Part shown: one piece after another, positions 3,528 to 40,649 of the stretch
Position numbering within the stretch: the first letter of the stretch is position 1
Layout of the letters: each line of letters starts with the position of its first letter
Source of the DNA: a virus
Reading direction: 5' to 3' (one strand)
IMG/VR virus record: IMGVR_UViG_3300028377_000007
Coordinates: 1 to 64,000 of that record
Length of the DNA: 64,000 nt
Program-made: the position numbers and the translations under genes
Notes under the pieces: model-generated
Told to the model about the DNA's origin: nothing
What the model saw: the letters and a program-made list of their open reading frames with translations, nothing else
Databases searched by the model: none

Positions 3528-4025
3528 CTAAAGCAACCCAGAATCGCTAAAAGAATAATAACCTTTAAAGTTTGCAAGAGAAGATGGATCGCTTGATTGT
3601 TCTCCGCAAACAACATGATCTAAAAGTTTAACACTGAGAATATTTGCAGCTTCTCTAAGTTGTCTTGTAACTCGTATATCCGCTTCACTTGGGGTTGGAT
3701 CGCCACTTGGATGATTATGAGCGACAACAATAGTTTTTATCCCTTCCCTAACTACCGATTGAAAAACGCAAGTGGGAGAAATTAAAGTAGCGTCTTGAGT
3801 CCCCGAAGAAATTATTTCGATTCCTTTAAGCCTATTTTTGATGTTCAAGAAAAGAACCATGAAATGTTCTCTTTCTGGATTAAGTTCCCCCTTATCGGCT
3901 TTTTGTTCCATAAAAGACTTTACGGCTTTCCAAGCTTTTTCTGGGTCATCAATAATTGAATCGGAAAGATTTCCTGTCATTTCCCCGACTTTGCGGTAAG
4001 TGGTTTTTACTTCTCTTATAATCAT
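3528..4025 (-). CDS. radC: RadC-like JAB domain protein
   Basis: REHF..LFLN and HNHPSGDPTPSEAD JAB motif, LLDHVV. Confidence 0.92.
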   Translation of the reverse strand: MIIREVKTTYRKVGEMTGNLSDSIIDDPEKAWKAVKSFMEQKADKGELNPEREHFMVLFLNIKNRLKGIEIISSGTQDATLISPTCVFQSVVREGIKTIVVAHNHPSGDPTPSEADIRVTRQLREAANILSVKLLDHVVCGEQSSDPSSLANFKGYYSFSDSGLL

Positions 4026-6931: not shown

Positions 6932-7005
6932 TGGTGCGCCCACTGAGATTCGAACTCAGATTGATTGGTTAAAAGCCAAATGTTCTACCATTGAACTATA
7001 GGCGC
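6932..7005 (-). tRNA. tRNA-Lys(UUU)
   Basis: GCGCCTA/TGGGCGC acceptor stem, loop CT-TTT-AA, GTTCGAATC T-arm, encoded CCA. Confidence 0.95.
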
Positions 7006-8238: not shown

Positions 8239-8371
8239 TATTTTCAGAGTATTAAACGTTATTTGCTATAAGTCAATAAAATAATTCCCTATTTAACAAA
8301 AGAGGCGACAGGATTTTACCCTGCCGCCCCCGATCATTCTTTTTGGATCCGCCCCGATCATTCTTTTTGGA

Positions 8372-8737
8372 TTAAGCTTTTACCTTGACTTTTTCAGCCT
8401 TGGTTTGTTCCTTGGCTTGTTCCTTTTCCAACTTGGCTTTTTCCTTGGCAGCGACCTCTTCCGCTTCTGGCAACCAAGCGGTTGTCTTTTGAACCGTAGT
8501 GTCCTTGACTTCCGCCGTTTCTTCGTCTCCAAACTGGTAGGTCTTTAGTCCCTTCATGCCTTGAGCGATAGCGTACTTGCGAGCCGTCTGAACCTCAGTT
8601 GGCTTGAGCTGAACGGAAGGAGTGTTTTCTTCAGTAAAGCCCCCCTTCTTAGTTGCGGCGATCATTTCGTCAAGCTCATTATGGTATGGCTTGCGGATTT
8701 CACGGTTATGGCGAACGGTGATGTTTCTGGTATTCAT
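8372..8737 (-). CDS. hypothetical protein with a K/E/A-rich C-terminus, probably highly expressed
   Basis: 121 aa, GC-richer codon usage; followed by a ~23-bp direct repeat (about 8325-8372) and a terminator-like hairpin (~8297-8330). Confidence 0.8.
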   Translation of the reverse strand: MNTRNITVRHNREIRKPYHNELDEMIAATKKGGFTEENTPSVQLKPTEVQTARKYAIAQGMKGLKTYQFGDEETAEVKDTTVQKTTAWLPEAEEVAAKEKAKLEKEQAKEQTKAEKVKVKA

Positions 8738-8829
8738 TATATTGTCCTTAGTTTTTGTTGTTAGTAAATAGTCATCCTTGACTATGAAAAAGAGTATTTC
8801 AGAAGTTATCTATAATGTCAATAGTTTTT

Positions 8830-18870: not shown

Positions 18871-18949
18871 TGGTGGGCCTTATGGGATTTAAACCCATGA
18901 TCTTCCATTTATGAGATGGTTGCTTTGAATCAGACTAAGCTAAAGGCCC
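18871..18949 (-). tRNA. tRNA with CAU anticodon (Ile2-like or Met), atypical D- and T-loops
   Basis: GGGCCTT/AAGGCCC acceptor stem, loop CT-CAT-AA, encoded CCA; T-loop reads TTTAAAT. Confidence 0.85.
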
Positions 18950-20221: not shown

Positions 20222-20298
20222 TGGTACGGAGGGCGGGACTCGAACCCGCGACCCACGGTTTAGAAAACCGTTGCTCTATCCAACTGAGCTACCCCCGC
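20222..20298 (-). tRNA. tRNA-Arg(UCU)
   Basis: Stem ACGGT/ACCGT, loop TT-TCT-AA, GTTCGAGTC T-arm, encoded CCA. Confidence 0.95.
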
Positions 20299-32961: not shown

Positions 32962-34047
32962 TTATTTTTTCAAAACTTGATATAGTAATTTTTTGTAATT
33001 TTCTTTTGTCAGCTCTTTTCCCTGCCTCAAACTAAAAACAAAGCCAGACCGATTTGTATCTCCCCATTTTTGAAATGTTTTTGCGGCAAAGGTTTTTTGA
33101 TCTATTTCCTTATGATCCTGCACGAATTTTTTCATAAAGTCAACAATTTTTTTGACTTCTTTCCAACCGTCACAGATTCTAGAAATGCTTCCCTTCGTTT
33201 GTTCAGCAATTTCATAGTCTAAAGTATCAACAATTATTTGATAAGCTTTATTATATTCTGGCATATCATGAGAAATCCAAAAATCAATAACCCTTTCAAA
33301 AGAACCGAGTTCTGATTTCATTCTATGTAAAGATAAATAGTGCTCGGCTTTTAGTTTTCTAATATCCTGGCCTTTATTACAATAAATACAAACTCCTTCC
33401 TTCCCTTCCCAAGAAGGTACGTCAGATAAAACATCTTTTATGCTATTATAACTGTATGTTTTTGGGCGCTTAACTAGAATGTTATTTGCTTCTTCATCAA
33501 TAATAAATTGTGATGCCATAGTATAATTCTCATGTTCTATTATGCCAATTAAATAAAGTTCTGGCTCTTCTCCGTAGTCAAGTACAATCTTATTATTTGG
33601 AGTCACCCACTCATAAAGATAGGAGAGTTCAGAATTGATTTCAAAAGCTTTTGGATGCTTTTCTTTTAGATAATTTATTTCAAAACCGTTATCTAATTTT
33701 GTAGCATCAATTGTTCCTCTAGTTCTAACAATCAATTCATTTTTATACTGCGAGACTATCAACGTAGAACCATCTATCTTTTCAATAATTTGGACCCCGC
33801 CGTTTGCAGTAGTAGAAAACGGAGTATAAGTTAATTCTGGTTGCTCTGAAAAGTTAAAGAATTTTTTAAATCCAGCGGAAATCAATTCACCATCAACATT
33901 CCAAATAGAAGATCTAAAAATTAGATTGTCTTTGGTCCACTTTACACCTATATGTTTTGGGAAAATCAAAAAGCATTTATCGCCGCCAATTATTCCTTCT
34001 TTAAGAATAAAATCTGATAAATCATAGTCTGCTAAGTTTATTTTCAT
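32962..34047 (-). CDS. rnlA: RNA ligase 1 (T4 RnlA family)
   Basis: FKKFFN..E, EKIDGS (motif I), TRG, YE..TPNNKIV, EGV, KLK. Confidence 0.88.
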   Translation of the reverse strand: MKINLADYDLSDFILKEGIIGGDKCFLIFPKHIGVKWTKDNLIFRSSIWNVDGELISAGFKKFFNFSEQPELTYTPFSTTANGGVQIIEKIDGSTLIVSQYKNELIVRTRGTIDATKLDNGFEINYLKEKHPKAFEINSELSYLYEWVTPNNKIVLDYGEEPELYLIGIIEHENYTMASQFIIDEEANNILVKRPKTYSYNSIKDVLSDVPSWEGKEGVCIYCNKGQDIRKLKAEHYLSLHRMKSELGSFERVIDFWISHDMPEYNKAYQIIVDTLDYEIAEQTKGSISRICDGWKEVKKIVDFMKKFVQDHKEIDQKTFAAKTFQKWGDTNRSGFVFSLRQGKELTKENYKKLLYQVLKK

Positions 34048-34063
34048 TTTGTGGTATTTTGAG

Positions 34064-34141
34064 TTATTTTAATCTTTCAACGCAAATATCATAATATTCT
34101 TTCTCTTTTTCAATCCCTATAAATTGTCTATTGAGATTATT
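34064..34141 (-). pseudogene. 3' relic of a second beta-class DNA methyltransferase
   Basis: Translates to NNLNRQFIGIEKEKEYYDICVERLK*, versus KNLNRQFIGIEKEKKYYDICVERLK* at the end of 15787..16512. Confidence 0.85.
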
Positions 34142-34910
34142 TCTTTTTTCATTTCTGTAATATTTCTAAATGGTATATACTATTAAATGTTTCAAAGATA
34201 TATTCTTTATCTGATATTTTTTCTACATTTATAACGCATGAAGTACGAAAAATTCCGTCAACTTTTATGCCGTTTCTTTCTATTCTCTTGAGACAACAAT
34301 GCTCATCTTTTTTGGGAATGCCAAGCGCATAACAAATAACTTCGTAGCCAGACCAAATAGATTTTTCTGGATCGCTAAAGTCTTTATTTACATCCTTATC
34401 TGTTGAAGTCTCTACTGCGGGATTTTTTGACGCTGATTTTTTCTTAATTTTTACTATCATTTTATTTACCCTCTTCTAACATACCCTTTTCAAAAAGCCA
34501 CTCATCAAAATAAGTTGGTTTATCTCCCCCGTTAAAACAATAATCAAAAAGCCATTCTTCTGTATTTTCTGTCAAGCCCTGAGATTTTAATTTTTCGACC
34601 ATTTCATCATACTCTCGTTGTATGATTCTATTTAGGTTTATCAAAAGCTCTTGCTTTGCCCAAATTTCGTCTAGCCACTCTGTTTTTAGCTCTGATTCTT
34701 TTACTTTGCTCATATTTTATTTTTAAGATTTTCCTTAGTTTCTCCCGTCGTCCAAGTATTTAATTCTCCGCAACAATCGCAGATATATTTTCCTTCGATA
34801 TGTCTAATTTCCCTATAAATCGTAGTTCGATAAGCTTTTATTCTTTTTTTGCTCATTTTATTTAAAACTTTATCTTCTATATATTTCATTTTTTTATTCC
34901 CCTTCTATTT

Positions 34911-35906
34911 TTAAAAGTTTCTATCAATAATATTTAAGAAATTCTCTCTAATCAATGTTGACGAGGATTGATTAAGGCTTTTGAATAAAAGTTTTTGCTC
35001 TGACTTTTCAAGTTCATTATATTTCTGCGAGTTTTCGCGCATATAATCTTCTAAAACATCTGAGTTTAATTCCTTCATAATCTTGCCGAAATCTTTATCA
35101 GTGACATCTCCAATTTTAGACAATGCACTTCTTAATCTATTTTCATTAACAAAGCTTTCGAGTTCTTCAATTTCTTTGGATAGTTCGGGCGAATATTCGA
35201 TTTTTTGTTTTTTCTTTTTTGTTTTTTCTTTCTCTGAGAATTTGGGGTTCTTATTTTTAAGTATAACCCTAGAACCGCACCCAAAAAACTTTGGAATAAA
35301 AGATTTGATAACGATCCCCTCTGACATATTTCCTTCTACTTTTTCCAATCCAAAATCTTTGTAAATCGGGTCTTCAAAAATAGGACTAAATTCTAAACAT
35401 TCGTCAAAAGTTCCAGTAAATAAAATTGGCGAATAAGGTATATCCGAATTCTTAAAAACATCAATTTTATAATCAAAGTCTAAATAAAAAGTATCTACTT
35501 TAATATCAACAGCATAAAACTCTATTTCTGGGGAATATTTTACCCTGTTTTGAATTGCTTTGACATTTGATTTAATATTTGGGTATGAACCGCCAAATAA
35601 TTCTCCGTAAATAGATAGACATTCAAATGTGACATATTTGCTTTTTAAATATGCCCAAGCTTTTTTTATGTAAGACTCTAATTTTTCTTCAATAGAGCGA
35701 AAATTATAAAAGTCTTCATTTCCGCCGATAAAACCAGACCTTTTAGCATATCTTATTTCTTTCCCATCATAATGAACGGAAAAGTTTGCTCCATCAATTT
35801 TATTTGATACTTCCCATAGACCATCTTCAAGGCCATCGAACCTAATTTGTTCGATTGTTTTTTCTCTATAGGTGTTTTCGATTGAGTTATATTTTGTGAA
35901 CTTCAT
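34911..35906 (-). CDS. RNA ligase 2 (Rnl2 family)
   Basis: FTKYNSIEN, KIDGANF, KR, YGELFGG, EGIVIK, ILKNKNPKFSEK. Confidence 0.92.
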   Translation of the reverse strand: MKFTKYNSIENTYREKTIEQIRFDGLEDGLWEVSNKIDGANFSVHYDGKEIRYAKRSGFIGGNEDFYNFRSIEEKLESYIKKAWAYLKSKYVTFECLSIYGELFGGSYPNIKSNVKAIQNRVKYSPEIEFYAVDIKVDTFYLDFDYKIDVFKNSDIPYSPILFTGTFDECLEFSPIFEDPIYKDFGLEKVEGNMSEGIVIKSFIPKFFGCGSRVILKNKNPKFSEKEKTKKKKQKIEYSPELSKEIEELESFVNENRLRSALSKIGDVTDKDFGKIMKELNSDVLEDYMRENSQKYNELEKSEQKLLFKSLNQSSSTLIRENFLNIIDRNF

Positions 35907-36160
35907 GATTATTTTCTCTGTTTCTTGCAAACAACTTTGCTTGATATTTGAATCTGATTTTTTGTAAAGCTTCTAAATTATTGATAAGTAATGCTATATT
36001 TAATCCATCATCAAATATTTTATCTATTTGATTAAAAATATCTTCCATATATTCGATTTGGGTTGCAATTTTAATTTCTGAAGATTTTGTAATTTTATCT
36101 GAAAATTCACATATGGTATGCGGATAATCCCCATCAGAAGTAGAAATCGGCGCAACTATT

Positions 36161-36529
36161 TTATTTTTGTGGTATTTCATTTTGTATATTTTTTCCTAGT
36201 TGCAAAGCTGTTCTTGCATTTTCCAATGCTTTTTCTAAATAATTAACCTGTCTTAATTTTCTAATTAAAAATGAATTTAAAGCCTCTTCTTTGGTGGGGT
36301 AAGCATATCTCTTTCGAGAGACTTTCGAAACCCATTTTTCTGTACACTTAAATATATAAAAATCTCCTTTATAAATTTCTTTTATCCAATAGCCCTTTGG
36401 GGTTTCTTTTGTTACATCAAACTCAATTAGTTTTACCTCTATATTATCATAACTACATCTTACAAAATTATCAAATGGGTCTATTCCTCCTGTTGAGTGT
36501 ATATCTTCTTGATATCTATAGTGTTTCAT
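36161..36529 (-). CDS. conserved phage hypothetical protein
   Basis: V.KETPKGYWI...KWV....RKRYAYPTKEEALNSF. Confidence 0.75.
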   Translation of the reverse strand: MKHYRYQEDIHSTGGIDPFDNFVRCSYDNIEVKLIEFDVTKETPKGYWIKEIYKGDFYIFKCTEKWVSKVSRKRYAYPTKEEALNSFLIRKLRQVNYLEKALENARTALQLGKNIQNEIPQK

Positions 36530-37121
36530 TAAATTTTTAAAAAGTAAGTATAATCAGATTCATTTAGGGATTCTATTTGTTAAGAATTATTGTGGCGTCT
36601 TTTTTTTTAAAGTCAATACTTTTTTGAAAAATTTATTTTTTAAGTTTCTCGTGGGGCTTGGATATCGTCTTTTTCGCTTACATCGAACTCGTGGTTTTAT
36701 TCGCTTATTCTGCCGTGAGAATATTCGCTTATTGCGCAGAAAAATAAAATAGATTCTCCTCCTGTTGGGTGTATATCTTCTTGTTATAATTCACTGGAGA
36801 AGAAAAAATGGTCAGTATCGGCGGCAGCGTATTGCCCTAGTTTTTGGCTCACCCCATCCTTAGCTAAATGATAGCACAACCATCCCTTGTATTCATCGAG
36901 GTACCTGTTCGTGTAGGAAATGGAATGAGGGCGCTTGCCGTATTTTTCGATATACTTGTCCCAAGCCTTGCGGTCCTTACCTCTAGTCGGTCTCGATTCG
37001 TAATACATAATTATAACCAGCCAGATCAGGACAACTCGCTTCGCTAGCGCCTGTCTTCGAAAATATCTATAGTGTTTCATTAAATTTTTAAAAAGTAAGT
37101 ATAATCAGATTCATTTAAGGA
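36485..37121. repeat. ~86-bp direct duplication; the second copy is split by the cassette insertion
   Basis: 36485..36570 equals 36757..36783 plus 37063..37121, with 2 mismatches. Confidence 0.9.
36784..37062 (+). mobile_element. integron gene cassette with attC (reverse-oriented 74-aa ORF at 36784..37008 on the minus strand)
   Basis: Starts G|TTATAATT; inverse core AATTATAAC at 37009-37017; 5-nt spacer; L'' AGATCAGG and L' CCTGTCT with one bulged base; GC-richer than the phage; inserted at G|ATAT. Confidence 0.75.
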
Positions 37122-37868
37122 CTCAAACATCAAGCTTTTACTCTTTACCACCATATAGGATTTTTGTAAATTGTCGAGGCAAAAATTCGTTTTTTCTTTT
37201 TCCCTCAACTCCGAAGTCCTTTTTGTTGTATGCCCGACTATTTGGCGAATATTATCAACTGGAACAAATTCTTCCCAATCAACCCAAATCGGCGAAGAAT
37301 AATGATCCGAGCCGCCCCTGTATGAACTCACATTCCAAATCCAATGGAAAGGTTTGTGATGAAAAGAAAGCTTATCTTTCTCCCACTCATCGTAAAGATA
37401 TTGTATATTATCTTCCTCGCTTAAATATGGCTTAAATTGAGCATATTGAAACCCAGCATGTACACAATAATATTCCCCGACTTTACAACACAACTTTAAT
37501 TTTTTAAAAAACTTTGGGTCTATGTATTTGTTGAAATCAGTAGCTTTACTTCTTGTCCAACCAGAACAACAATAGAAAGTATTTTTTGACGGAATTATTT
37601 TTGGCGTATAAGATGCTAAATATGCTAAATCATGGTTTCCAAGTAAAAAATTAAACCTTTCATCGTCTAGTTTATCGTTTATCCACTTACAAACATTTTT
37701 AATAGAGAAATGCGTAGCATTGTTTATGTTATCGAATGTATCAAAGAAATCCCCTAAAAATACAACATTATCAAAGTCCTTTTCTTTTTCAAGAATTGCG
37801 TCAGCGAAACCTAAATTTTGATGGATATCGGGGATTATGATTGTTTTACCTTTGTTTATTTTTTTCAT
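37080..37868 (-). CDS. calcineurin-like metallophosphoesterase
   Basis: PDIH, FLGDFFD, LGNHD, VHAG, VGHT. Confidence 0.92.
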   Translation of the reverse strand: MKKINKGKTIIIPDIHQNLGFADAILEKEKDFDNVVFLGDFFDTFDNINNATHFSIKNVCKWINDKLDDERFNFLLGNHDLAYLASYTPKIIPSKNTFYCCSGWTRSKATDFNKYIDPKFFKKLKLCCKVGEYYCVHAGFQYAQFKPYLSEEDNIQYLYDEWEKDKLSFHHKPFHWIWNVSSYRGGSDHYSSPIWVDWEEFVPVDNIRQIVGHTTKRTSELREKEKTNFCLDNLQKSYMVVKSKSLMFESLNESDYTYFLKI

Positions 37869-37948
37869 CTTCTTTTGTTGCTTTTTCTTCCGCTATATCC
37901 ATTTACTGGTACAGGTTTCCGTTCTTTTAAACTTACAAAAATCTAAAG

Positions 37949-39166
37949 TCATATTTTTAAGATATAAACTCTTGATTTTTTGTTAAATTCCTGCTTCACA
38001 GAACAGCTAACCAAACTTTCGTTTGATGAACTCTGTTCTCCACAGGCCGACACGGTAGAGCTTACCGCCAAATTCTTTAAATTGATAGAGGCATTAAAAT
38101 CCCTATCCATTTTATTGTCACACACCTTACACTCAAATACTCTATCCGTCAAGGTCAGACTTTCGTTTTTCCATCCGCAGCATGAACACAATTTAGAGCT
38201 AGCGAAGAAAGTATCGGCAAAGATAACTTTTCTATTGCTCCATTTTGCTTTATATTCGACCTGACGACGAAATTCGAATAGTCCAACATCACTGATAGCT
38301 TGCGCCAAACAATGATTCTTCATCATATTGCTTACTTTCAAATCTTCTAAAACTATTGTTTTATTTTCACGAACAATTTTAGTGGTTATTTTATGCAAGC
38401 AATCTTTACGAATATTTGATATGTGATTGTGTAGTTTTGCTAATTTTTGTTTTGCTTTTCCATAGTTTTTACTTCCTTTTTTCTTTCTTGATAATTGACG
38501 TTGTTTGAGCTTTAATTTATTGAGATTCTTCTTTAATGCTTTGGGATTTTCGTAAGTCGTCCCGTCTGAGCAAGTAGCCAGAGTCTTAATGCCTAAATCA
38601 ACTCCAATTACATCATTAATGGCGTTTGTAGGCTCTCTATCGGGCGTTTCTACTTGAACCGACACAAACCATCTGCCAGCTTTCTTGGACACTGTAGCAG
38701 ATAAGATTTTACAATCGGTTGGAATATAATCTTTTTCGGCTAATTTCAGCTTACCGATTCGCGGCAATTTAATACATCCAGATTCAACCGAAATTGCTCC
38801 ATCCAATCTAAAAGATTGTTTGTCATTCTTTTTGGATTTGAATTTCGGGAACCCTTTCTTGCCTTTAACTTTTTTCTTGCAACGAGTGAAGAAATTTTGA
38901 AATGCTTTATCACAATCTCTTAATGCGTTTTGTGGCGAACTTTTGCTTGAATTATACATCCAAGGAATATCGGTTTTCTTTAGTTTGTTTAATTCTCTAT
39001 GAAGTTCAATAGCATTAGGGGTTTTCTCTTTCTTATCAAATGCCTCTTTCTTGATATTTAAAGCCCAATTATAAGCAAAACGCGCCGCGCCCAAAGATTT
39101 CATCAGGTCGGTTTTTTGTGCATTGTTGGTCACTACAATCTCGGTTTTATATGCTCGTAAAATCAT
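37949..39166 (-). CDS. tnpB: RNA-guided endonuclease TnpB
   Basis: N-terminal HTH (RAYK, ARFAYNWAL); RuvC I GVDLG, II VLEDL, III DRDFNAS; zinc finger CSCCG..CKVC; catalytic residues intact. Confidence 0.95.
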   Translation of the reverse strand: MILRAYKTEIVVTNNAQKTDLMKSLGAARFAYNWALNIKKEAFDKKEKTPNAIELHRELNKLKKTDIPWMYNSSKSSPQNALRDCDKAFQNFFTRCKKKVKGKKGFPKFKSKKNDKQSFRLDGAISVESGCIKLPRIGKLKLAEKDYIPTDCKILSATVSKKAGRWFVSVQVETPDREPTNAINDVIGVDLGIKTLATCSDGTTYENPKALKKNLNKLKLKQRQLSRKKKGSKNYGKAKQKLAKLHNHISNIRKDCLHKITTKIVRENKTIVLEDLKVSNMMKNHCLAQAISDVGLFEFRRQVEYKAKWSNRKVIFADTFFASSKLCSCCGWKNESLTLTDRVFECKVCDNKMDRDFNASINLKNLAVSSTVSACGEQSSSNESLVSCSVKQEFNKKSRVYILKI

Positions 39167-39672
39167 ATCTTAAAAACCCTACCGAAATTAGAAAATATAT
39201 GCTCAAATTCTGAAAATTTATTTCCCTTATAACATAAACAACAAGCCATTGGAGCACCTTTTTTATCCTCTATTCCGTTGTTAAAAAAACGAAGTCTAGT
39301 GTCTGATAAAAAACAAATAGCGGTATATTTTTTAAAAACTATTTCCTTAAAGTGTTTGGTGTTAGTAGCGACAGGAACTAAGAAAATTAATTCACCCTCT
39401 GTCTCAAGGGATTTTTTAAACCAGTCATATAGAGACTTCCCTTTACTTCTGCCGTAAGGAGGATTTACAAAGATGGTTTTAGCGTCCCATTTTTCAATTA
39501 ATCCGTCCTTATTTGGGTATATTAGATTATTTCTCGCAGAAACCAGAGAATTCTGATTGGAACATGGGTCTAATTCGATTTCTCCACCAAAAAATGCTGT
39601 TATTGGAATTATGTATTTCGGAGGGGTATTCCAATCCTTTTTATCAGAATTATTTTTGCGACCAGCACTCAT
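39163..39672 (-). CDS. phage Dam-like DNA N6-adenine methyltransferase
   Basis: DWNTP, ELDPC, DGL..W, IFVNPPYG, LVP..T.T, RLRF. Confidence 0.88.
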   Translation of the reverse strand: MSAGRKNNSDKKDWNTPPKYIIPITAFFGGEIELDPCSNQNSLVSARNNLIYPNKDGLIEKWDAKTIFVNPPYGRSKGKSLYDWFKKSLETEGELIFLVPVATNTKHFKEIVFKKYTAICFLSDTRLRFFNNGIEDKKGAPMACCLCYKGNKFSEFEHIFSNFGRVFKI

Positions 39673-40343
39673 ACCAATTCCTCCATTTCTTTCTTAATTC
39701 ATTTTCAAAGCCCTTAGACATCACTTCTTCAACTTTTTCAATCCTAACTTTATATGAATTAAAATATGAAACCAAATAATTAAAGCAAAATCTCGACAAT
39801 CTATCTTTATGCTCAATCAAAACCACATCAATTTCTTTCGCTTCCACCAATTCAAATAATTACAGCAATAATACTGTAACCGCGTTTAAGAGCTTCTGTA
39901 GTCATTCTACCAACCTGCCTCCCTAAGTCGCCTTTAGTCTTTTGTTCGTGCGGGCTAACGCGACAATAGATAGCTGCACGCTTACCGCTAGATTCTTTAA
40001 TGGGTTCAACATAAATTCCCGCCAACTTCTCAATATCGCTGCGATAATAGCGTCTATGTCTGCCTTCGGTATGAAACGGCGTTAATTTGCCTGCACGTTC
40101 CCAATTCCTTAATGTTTCGTCGGAAACACCAAGAATAGATGCGGCATCGCTGATAGATAGAATCTTTTTATCCATTTTATCTATCAATCCTTTCTGTTGA
40201 AATAATCTAAACCATCCATCGTAGATTTTCTGAAATTCCTCAATTGTAGGAACCTCATCCAATTCAAACGGAATATCATGGATAACTCCATCATCGGTTT
40301 CAAATTCTGTTTTGGTAACTCTTGTAATCATTTTTGGTTTCAT
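39650..40343 (-). pseudogene. tnpA: IS607 serine recombinase TnpA, frameshifted and C-terminally truncated, with a 56-aa N-terminal extension
   Basis: MerR HTH and AAIYCRVS in 39852..40343; EHKDRLSRF in 39650..39850; the usual DxGSG segment and the C-terminal helix are missing. Confidence 0.85.
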
Positions 40344-40412
40344 ATATATTTACACTAAAAGTTTAGATTTTTCAAGAAAAAAGTTAAATTATTTTAATTT
40401 TATTTAGATATT

Positions 40413-40649
40413 TTAGATTATCGGGTAGCAGTTGTCAACCCCGTCATTTGCTAATTTTAATATTCTTCTTAGAATTTTTAACTCTGTTTTTGTAAAATTT
40501 ATTTTATGCCATAGATCTATAATATCGTCGACTAAATATAAATTCTCACATTCTATATTTTTTAAAAAATTAAAAAGCTTTTCTGAATTGTTATATTTGC
40601 AACCCATATGGGAATCAGATATAAAAATATGCTTTGATTTTATCATCAC
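40413..40649 (-). pseudogene. truncated LpxH-like metallophosphoesterase
   Basis: IFISDSHMG, LYLV.DIIDLW; ends before GNHD, at the IS607 left end. Confidence 0.7.

Follow-up and report, generated by a model that had tools for sequence, protein, structure and literature searches.

The locus described here lies within the first 64 kb (the window, meaning the whole stretch of DNA that was analysed) of an 87,040-bp virus record from IMG/VR, which is linear, approximately 59% complete and has a GC content of 32.5%. Reading along the minus strand, a gene for a calcineurin-like phosphoesterase is followed by codons for the short peptide MKHYRY, an insert, a short remnant of phage gene X and a spacer (U); beyond U lie a remnant of the phosphoesterase 3′ end, an intact 122-aa gene X, a 97-aa ORF and an Rnl2-type RNA ligase (Table 1). 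The RNA ligase (RNA_ligase and T4_Rnl2_C domains, 34911-35930) and the phosphoesterase bracket this plastic region, a pairing reminiscent of phage RNA-repair modules.

Table 1. Features at the locus (window coordinates; the arrow marks the proposed recombination point).
Feature	Position	Strand	Remarks
Gene X, 122 aa, intact	36161..36529	minus
Copy A, uninterrupted target	36485..36573		G↓AT at 36511/36512; single-copy equivalent in L007; contains the 5′ end of intact gene X and a non-coding remnant of the phosphoesterase gene 3′ end
Spacer U, 183 bp	36574..36756	minus	Separates copies A and B
Copy B, target left half	36757..36783		Terminal target G at 36783 plus first cassette bases = GTTATAATT
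Insert (candidate cassette), 279 bp	36784..37062	+	attC top strand is the + strand
Fusion ORF, 98 aa	36784..37080	minus	MKHYRY, 18 residues read from the attC, cargo
Cassette start TTATAA	36784..36789	+	3′ part of R′ (G↓TTATAA) once circularised
Cargo ORF, 74 aa	36787..37008	minus	Conserved small-protein family
R″ box TTATAAC	37011..37017	+	Pairing extends to 9 bp, AATTATAAC, 37009-37017
Spacer″ CAGCC, unpaired	37018..37022	+
L″ box AGATCAGG	37023..37030	+	Bulged T at 37026, following base 3
Variable terminal loop, 19 nt	37031..37049	+	Includes CGCTTCGC
L′ box CCTGTCT	37050..37056	+
Spacer′ TCGAA, unpaired	37057..37061	+
Final cassette base	37062	+	A in the window, G in L008 (the G of G↓TT)
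Copy B, target right half	37063..37124		MKHYRY start codons and true phosphoesterase 3′ end
Calcineurin-like phosphoesterase gene	37080..37868	minus

The insert and its boundaries

The 279-bp insert has a GC content of 45.9%, compared with 32.5% for the 87-kb record, and direct reading together with a repeat finder places it within the target CTTCTTG↓ATATCT, the left flank ending at 36783 and the right flank starting at 37063. The same target survives unsplit in copy A, 551 bp from the interrupted site. In copy B the left half is 94% identical to 36485-36515 and the right half is 97% identical to 36512-36573. The insert begins with TTATAATT and is present as a single copy, no other copies of it or of its leader being found in the genome; there is no target duplication, and neither junction displays microhomology. 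An earlier note on this DNA had described a GC-richer insert of 279 bp splitting this target, with an intact duplicate nearby, and our analysis arrives at the same boundaries to the base. The intact target does lie in the duplicate, but the note overlooked that the insert sits inside a 551-bp unit of duplication plus spacer and is never seen without it.

A search with the junction pattern recovered two JGI metagenome contigs, L007 and L008. L008 is collinear with positions 33001-37920 of the window at 99.6% identity and contains the duplication, U and the insert. L007 contains one unsplit copy, in which the phosphoesterase is joined directly to MKHYRYQEDIH..., and carries neither U nor the insert. 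Both the paralogue (copy A) and the lone, unsplit target in L007 therefore fix the boundaries of the insert, independently of any assumption about attC sites. They fall between the G and the TT of a core site: at the left edge TTATAA comes directly after the target G at 36783, and at the right edge, in L008, ...TCGAAG gives way to ATATCT.

Haplotypes in related metagenomes

Contigs from the Logan collection, assembled from lake-water and salt-lake metagenomes, contain the window haplotype in one run (X1) and the L008 haplotype in two others (X3 and X5), while a fourth (X6) is dominated by the L007-type form, with part of U and part of the insert on a minor contig. The sole structural polymorphism that we see is the presence or absence of the whole 551-bp unit, with the insert always accompanied by the adjacent duplication. 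Cassette-only, duplication-only and circle-junction forms were not seen in the contigs of these four runs, which cannot prove such forms absent. The L007 form could be ancestral, or could result from a deletion across the 62-bp direct repeats; in both cases, copy B corresponds to copy A plus the insert.

Within the insert, the window and L008 differ at five positions, three of them in the 54-nt attC part (37021, 37048 and 37062) and two in the 225-nt ORF. The three differences in the attC part are all transitions, at a density far above the 0.4% divergence of the flanks; one of the ORF differences is synonymous and the other is D12G. This pattern fits a recombination site that may have been drifting since insertion. 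At position 37062, where the window has A, L008 has G. The earlier note had argued that this terminal A should be a G, and the G is indeed present both in L008 and in the haplotype behind protein P0002. The 98-aa fusion is represented in its protein cluster by Leu7/Gly36 and Phe7/Asp36 haplotypes, and Gly at cargo residue 12 is the family consensus. Since the G is linked to this consensus Gly, the G-bearing haplotype is probably the older, which suggests that G at 37062 is the ancestral state.

Several other differences and features were noted in the course of these comparisons. In L007, a 511-bp deletion (equivalent to window 35912-36422) and a 12-nt deletion, at 3904-3981 of that contig, join the opening 35 codons of gene X to the final codons of the 97-aa ORF and so yield a 43-aa product (P0007); because it is truncated and fused here, gene X appears to be dispensable. 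An IS607-type block occupies window 37921-40439 and contains an intact TnpB gene (37949..39166; OrfB_IS605 and Cas12f-like TNB domains) and an apparently split MerR-HTH/serine-recombinase tnpA (39852..40343 and 39650..39850). About 650 bp of other sequence stands in its place in both L007 and L008, so the block is a recent insertion in the window lineage. Other islands of 47-58% GC are found in the window at 626-975, 8301-8750 and 39876-40150, and in the remainder of the genome at 65826-66275 and 86076-86875; each holds an ORF of 110-300 aa, none contains a match to the strict attC grammar described below, and they may represent further foreign genes. Genes for tRNA-Lys(ttt) (6932-7005), tRNA-Met(cat) (18871-18949) and tRNA-Arg(tct) (20222-20298) are all located on the minus strand.

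A candidate attC site at the circular junction

When the L008 form of the insert is circularised, its two ends generate R″ TTATAAC and R′ GTTATAA boxes with no mismatches, and in the window the R′ box is ATTATAA, a single transition away. Inside these, L″ AGA(T)CAGG pairs with L′ CCTGTCT, again with no mismatches and with a bulge after base 3. The resulting layout, 7-5-8(bulged T after base 3)-19-7-5-7, amounts to 58 nt and contains one extrahelical base only; attC sites in the literature range from 55 to 141 nt. The parts of this candidate site listed in the earlier note, namely the R″ repeat, CAGCC, an L″ box with a bulge, CCTGTCT, TCGAA and the terminal A, are all as it described them. The AAC and GTT triplets of the consensus cores RYYYAAC (R″) and GTTRRRY (R′) are thus present in the L008 form; the degenerate positions depart from R/Y in the manner also found in the validated sites of phage H101 (GTATAAC/GTTATAT).

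The minimum-free-energy fold of the circular junction (the last 54 nt joined to the first 9 nt) consists of a 9-bp R stem (AATTATAAC paired with GTTATAATT), a 5x5 internal loop, and then a 7-bp L stem with one bulged T, closed by the terminal loop. With DNA parameters, the z-score of this junction is -2.24 in the window form and -3.15 when the L008 G is used, whereas the linear hairpin, folded as it stands in the integrated DNA, does not outperform shuffled sequences (z of -0.45 and -0.31). The bulge is in the 5′ arm, a polarity that places the crossover in R′, where the boundary of the insert sits. Top-strand recombination of a cassette in the normal orientation was considered and rejected, as it needs a bulge in the 3′ arm. 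The arrangement is also economical: the cargo stop codon (TAA, the complement of 36784-36786) overlaps the cassette start and occupies the first three bases of the insert, the ATG abuts R″, and almost no non-coding DNA is left over.

The target G↓AT, within GATAT, fits both the sequence 5′-GWT-3′ and the older consensus GWTMW. The latter had been pointed out in the earlier note, and the junction also agrees with the rule published for genomic attG sites, 5′-GWT-3′ with cleavage after the G (bioRxiv 10.1101/2022.09.11.507474). The hotspot motif CRGM is absent at +6 to +9 of the target, where TATA is found.

Chance expectation and model searches

We wrote a grammar for attC sites consisting of an R″ ending in AAC, a spacer, an 8-nt L″ with one bulge, a loop, a 7-nt L′, a second spacer and an R′ that opens with GTT. 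In its strictest tier, which demands perfect R and L boxes and 5/5 spacers, the grammar accepts the L008 cassette; this tier gives 0 matches in 174 kb of real sequence (both genome strands) and 6 matches in 30 Mb of composition-matched random sequence, or about 2e-7 per nt. The loosest tier recovers seven of eight genuine attCs and matches at a rate of 5.5e-4 per nt. Given that the G↓TT must hit an independently defined boundary, the chance that it falls exactly on the edge of the indel is about 4e-7 to 1e-3, of which the lower figure is to be taken with caution because the grammar was composed after the candidate had been seen.

Covariance models were built from four class 1 attCs (R1) and from these together with cmlA1 and three H101 sites (R2). 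The models detect cmlA1 (33 bits) and the H101 attCs (17-19 bits), but when run on the window, L007 and L008 they do not report the integrated candidate at E<=10. A targeted search with R2 aligns the whole of the integrated candidate at 8.7 bits, with the expected register and strand, against a window background of up to 12.6. In the integrated form the R′ box is replaced by target DNA (GATATCT), which disrupts three R pairs, and the missing significant match is thus partly expected; the authors of IntegronFinder report similar misses of sites that lack R′ at the edges of arrays.

No tyrosine recombinase (PF00589) is encoded in the window, as the earlier note had stated, or anywhere in the 87-kb record. 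Neither the grammar nor the covariance models detect a second attC or a cassette array in the record, and no further copies of the attC pattern were found in IMG/VR, where queries with the phosphoesterase protein and the junction DNA likewise gave no match. A scan of 36000-37900 with Rfam returned nothing relevant and no IS605 or omega-RNA motifs.

The cargo gene

The cargo ORF is located on the strand opposite the attC top strand, so that the usual layout of one ORF and one attC on the same strand is not found here. Inverted cassettes are known, as a minority, and we regard the reversed cargo as atypical rather than excluding. The reversal, and an in-frame fusion to MKHYRY, had been recognised previously and are borne out by a 98-aa ORF, the start of which overlaps the phosphoesterase stop codon (TAATG). 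The sequences TTATAAT and TATAAT were examined as a promoter -10 box for the cargo ORF and rejected, being only 1 nt from its ATG.

Exhaustive HMMER searches identify free-standing homologues of the cargo, 73-84 aa in length and 36-50% identical, which conform to the pattern Y..RPK.G.ARKAWDKY...P...Y.PNYD...KGWVC...H.FY.S.EL-stop. On the strength of this conservation, we take the 74-aa ORF to be a real gene of a conserved family. The homologues start and end where the 74-aa ORF does, which leaves the first 24 residues of the fusion (MKHYRY and the following 18) outside the cargo. There is no corresponding family in Pfam or PHROGs. A confident AlphaFold model of the cargo (pLDDT 82.7) consists of a helix packed on a small sheet, for which Foldseek retrieves nothing from the PDB at E<=0.001; the best match in a wide VIA search (Z 5.1) is a generic helix-on-sheet arrangement that is not above background, and the best score in the ESM Atlas (0.81) is not informative.

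The genomic context is known for one cargo homologue only, which lies on a viral contig of 52% GC (L002) as an unremarkable member of an operon, flanked by genes for a P4-type primase and a TraR-like zinc-finger protein. Almost nothing of the family is found in 185,579 species genomes (GTDB; one partial match), 50,697 phage records and 72,556 plasmids. Protein searches of the phages and plasmids with the L002 homologue and with protein P0001 gave no match, and neither did a DNA search of the phage collection. The cargo looks phage-derived, and it is therefore a misfit with the simplest account, in which a host gene was given to the phage.

The duplication and spacer U

In spacer U, an A/T-rich, promoter-like module containing TTGACT (36585-36641) is 83% identical to an intergenic segment at 67253-67310 of the genome, and this repetition indicates that at least part of U is native phage regulatory DNA; no other copies of U were found in the genome. 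The module reads …AAAGTCAAT.CTTTTTTGAAAAATTT…, with TTGACT on the minus strand, and its second copy adjoins a tRNA-rich region. The GC-richer half of U contains three TTCGCTTA repeats (at 36673, 36700 and 36724, spanning 36673-36731 with spacings of 27 and 24 nt); this motif is not enriched across the window (4 observed, 3.2 expected). U has no attC features, and its interpretation as a second cassette was rejected for want of an R″ partner.

Integron chemistry does not explain the duplication. Had the duplication come before the insertion, it would have offered a neutral target; had it come afterwards, it would have restored an intact gene X. T4-type phages reportedly contain mobile regulatory cassettes termed promoter-stem-loops (PeSLs), attributed to Arbiol et al. 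in 2010, and the present region is similar to these in that repeated segments with promoters enclose small foreign ORFs in a plastic part of a large phage genome. By analogy, PeSL-like shuffling might explain the duplication and spacer U. Unlike the insertion considered here, however, that process depends on homologous recombination between repeats and predicts neither a G↓TT crossover nor attC geometry.

Comparison with known integron systems

A SALIN is a single attC site lacking an integrase, and by definition has no local integrase or array. The insertion of cassettes at attG sites has been demonstrated in the laboratory, and SALINs have been predicted in bacterial genomes (bioRxiv 10.1101/2022.09.11.507474). 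The locus shares with the system of Loot et al. a single ORF and a single attC without a nearby integrase, a 5′-GWT-3′ target cut after the G, the composition of both junctions (target G and cassette TT on the left, cassette G and target WT on the right) and the expression of the cargo from neighbouring host promoters. It differs in that the recipient is a phage genome from lake metagenomes rather than a bacterial chromosome, in that the cargo is inverted with respect to the attC and joined in frame to a start codon of the phage, and in that no integrase or donor array is known.

Virulent phages, too, are reported to carry attC sites and CALINs (Qi et al. 2023, PMC9892861); with IntI1, the sites of Pseudoalteromonas phage H101 recombine with attI1 as efficiently as attCaadA7 does. 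The attC1 and attC2 sites of H101 resemble the candidate in length (57-58 nt), in their 5/5 spacers, in their R boxes ((A/G)TATAAC and GTTATAT/C) and in their location in a large phage genome. The H101-type sites form clusters of at least two with intact R′ cores and have no empty-site allele, whereas the candidate is one attC with its R′ replaced by target DNA and with filled and empty alleles that are both natural; the L boxes are unrelated in sequence. The suggestion in the earlier note that the style of the attC identifies the host, with a hint of Verrucomicrobiota, finds no support, the nearest look-alike R boxes being those of this Pseudoalteromonas phage.

For class 1 integrons, we used the attCs of aadA1, aadA2, psp and qacH in the phage P1 isolate MH445380, which have the geometry 7-5-8(bulge after base 3)-20-7-6-7. 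The candidate is collinear with the 60-nt aadA-type site (the 59-base element), with the bulge after the third L″ base and the loop sequence CGCTTCGC in common. It departs from the class 1 sites in its 5-nt rather than 6-nt spacer′, and hence lacks one extrahelical base, in having T rather than C (top strand) as the bulged base and in its L boxes, and the class 1-based model awards it only the 8.7 bits given above.

Discussion

We consider it probable, at roughly 0.7, that the 279-bp insert is a genuine isolated integron-type cassette of the SALIN kind, made up of a reversed 74-aa ORF and a 58-nt attC. The central proposal of the earlier note, an attC cassette captured at a G↓AT secondary site, is thus the best supported explanation, although a significant match to the attC models built here, an integrase and an array are all missing from the locus. 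Direct observation covers the boundaries, the target, the geometry, the G of a relative and the reality of the cargo family, whereas the part played by an integron integrase (IntI), the circular intermediate and the timing with respect to the 551-bp duplication belong to the mechanism that we infer. It would begin with a circular cassette whose attC adopts its fold in single-stranded form. The IntI of a host would then have carried out a single-strand exchange, with the G↓TT of R′ as one partner and, as the other, the G↓AT of an attG or secondary site that lies seven codons inside the duplicated 5′ part of phage gene X, and replication would have fixed the insertion. The cargo would now be read together with the phage genes, either by read-through as the 98-aa fusion or from its own ATG, and the attC would have been decaying since the insertion, as the apparent change from G to A at 37062 in the window haplotype suggests. 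Elements of this kind have already been described, as SALINs, attG insertions and phage-borne attCs, and the present one would be an unusually clean natural example in a phage.

The most serious competitor, which we judge rather unlikely, is ordinary phage mosaicism, in which the gene and its 54-nt leader were acquired from another phage by illegitimate or microhomology-mediated recombination, perhaps arriving with U and the duplication in one 551-bp event, and the resemblance to an attC is coincidental. TTATAA would then double as a Leu-stop and a -10-like box, and the rest of the leader would be an unrelated hairpin. Such an origin would be consistent with a cargo family that is phage-borne where its context is known, with the phage promoter-like module of U that recurs elsewhere in the genome, and with the entire 551-bp unit as the only polymorphism seen; the conserved C-terminus (...EL-stop) accounts for part of the left repeat, and the covariance models are not significant on the integrated site. 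Neither junction contains the microhomology that this process would use, however, and the TATAAT, 1 nt from the ATG, is not a -10 box for the cargo ORF. Coincidence would also have to bring together a 9-bp repeat with the AAC and GTT triplets, a 7-bp L stem with its bulge in the right place, spacers of 5 nt on both sides and a crossover at G↓TT, for which the expectation is that calculated above, and it offers no account of the G that was predicted at 37062 and then found in L008.

A different system of hairpin-dependent, single-strand recombination (Xer/IMEX-like, rolling-circle transposition of the IS91 type, or a miniature element derived from IS200/IS605) appears improbable. The insertion follows CTTG, which is an IS91 target, it has produced no target duplication, and the phage contains IS607/TnpB elements. 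Against these points, terminal inverted repeats are lacking, as is any second subterminal hairpin in non-coding DNA; the insert is a single copy consisting almost wholly of one conserved ORF, with coding sequence at its left end; the TTGAT-type target of IS605 misfits the junction; Rfam finds none of the corresponding motifs here; and the geometry agrees with that of an attC in every measured respect.

Least credible of all is a tandem arrangement created by a repeat loop in assembly, with an uninterrupted genome and a variant or small circle as the true state: a 55-nt repeat does collapse into one node of summed depth in the Logan unitigs, with the U-cassette piece as a loop on that node (depth 13.7, against 22 on the gene X side), but the same order occurs in the 87-kb IMG/VR record, in the 40.8-kb JGI contig L008 and in ENA contigs of up to 114 kb that encode the 98-aa fusion, fixed substitutions separate the two copies, and even a real artefact would leave the cassette and its junctions standing. 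A group I or II intron or an intein was rejected, the insert being a free-standing conserved ORF that ends in a stop codon, as was a TnpB omega-RNA, on account of its distance from the tnpB 3′ end.

Returning to the isolated integron-type cassette, its main biological oddities are the phage-like cargo and the reversed orientation. We tentatively propose that integron integrases naturally load cassettes into large, probably virulent lake phages at GWT sites, and that such cassettes may act as a shuttle that carries phage genes between phages by way of their hosts. The cargo family, which is otherwise seen only in phage or metagenome DNA, could on this proposal comprise, for example, small inhibitors or counter-defence factors.

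Until now there has been no natural example of such an insertion with junctions that can be compared exactly with the empty site. The locus offers one, in a phage, and two of its haplotypes appear to show the decay of the attC after insertion. If the shuttle proposal is true, the filled and empty alleles seen here would be the first such pair from nature to record an event of this kind. Confirmation by a recombination assay, for which the locus supplies both a 58-nt substrate and a target, would establish gene flow from integrons to phages in an environmental population. The locus also flags the conserved 74-aa family as mobile cargo.
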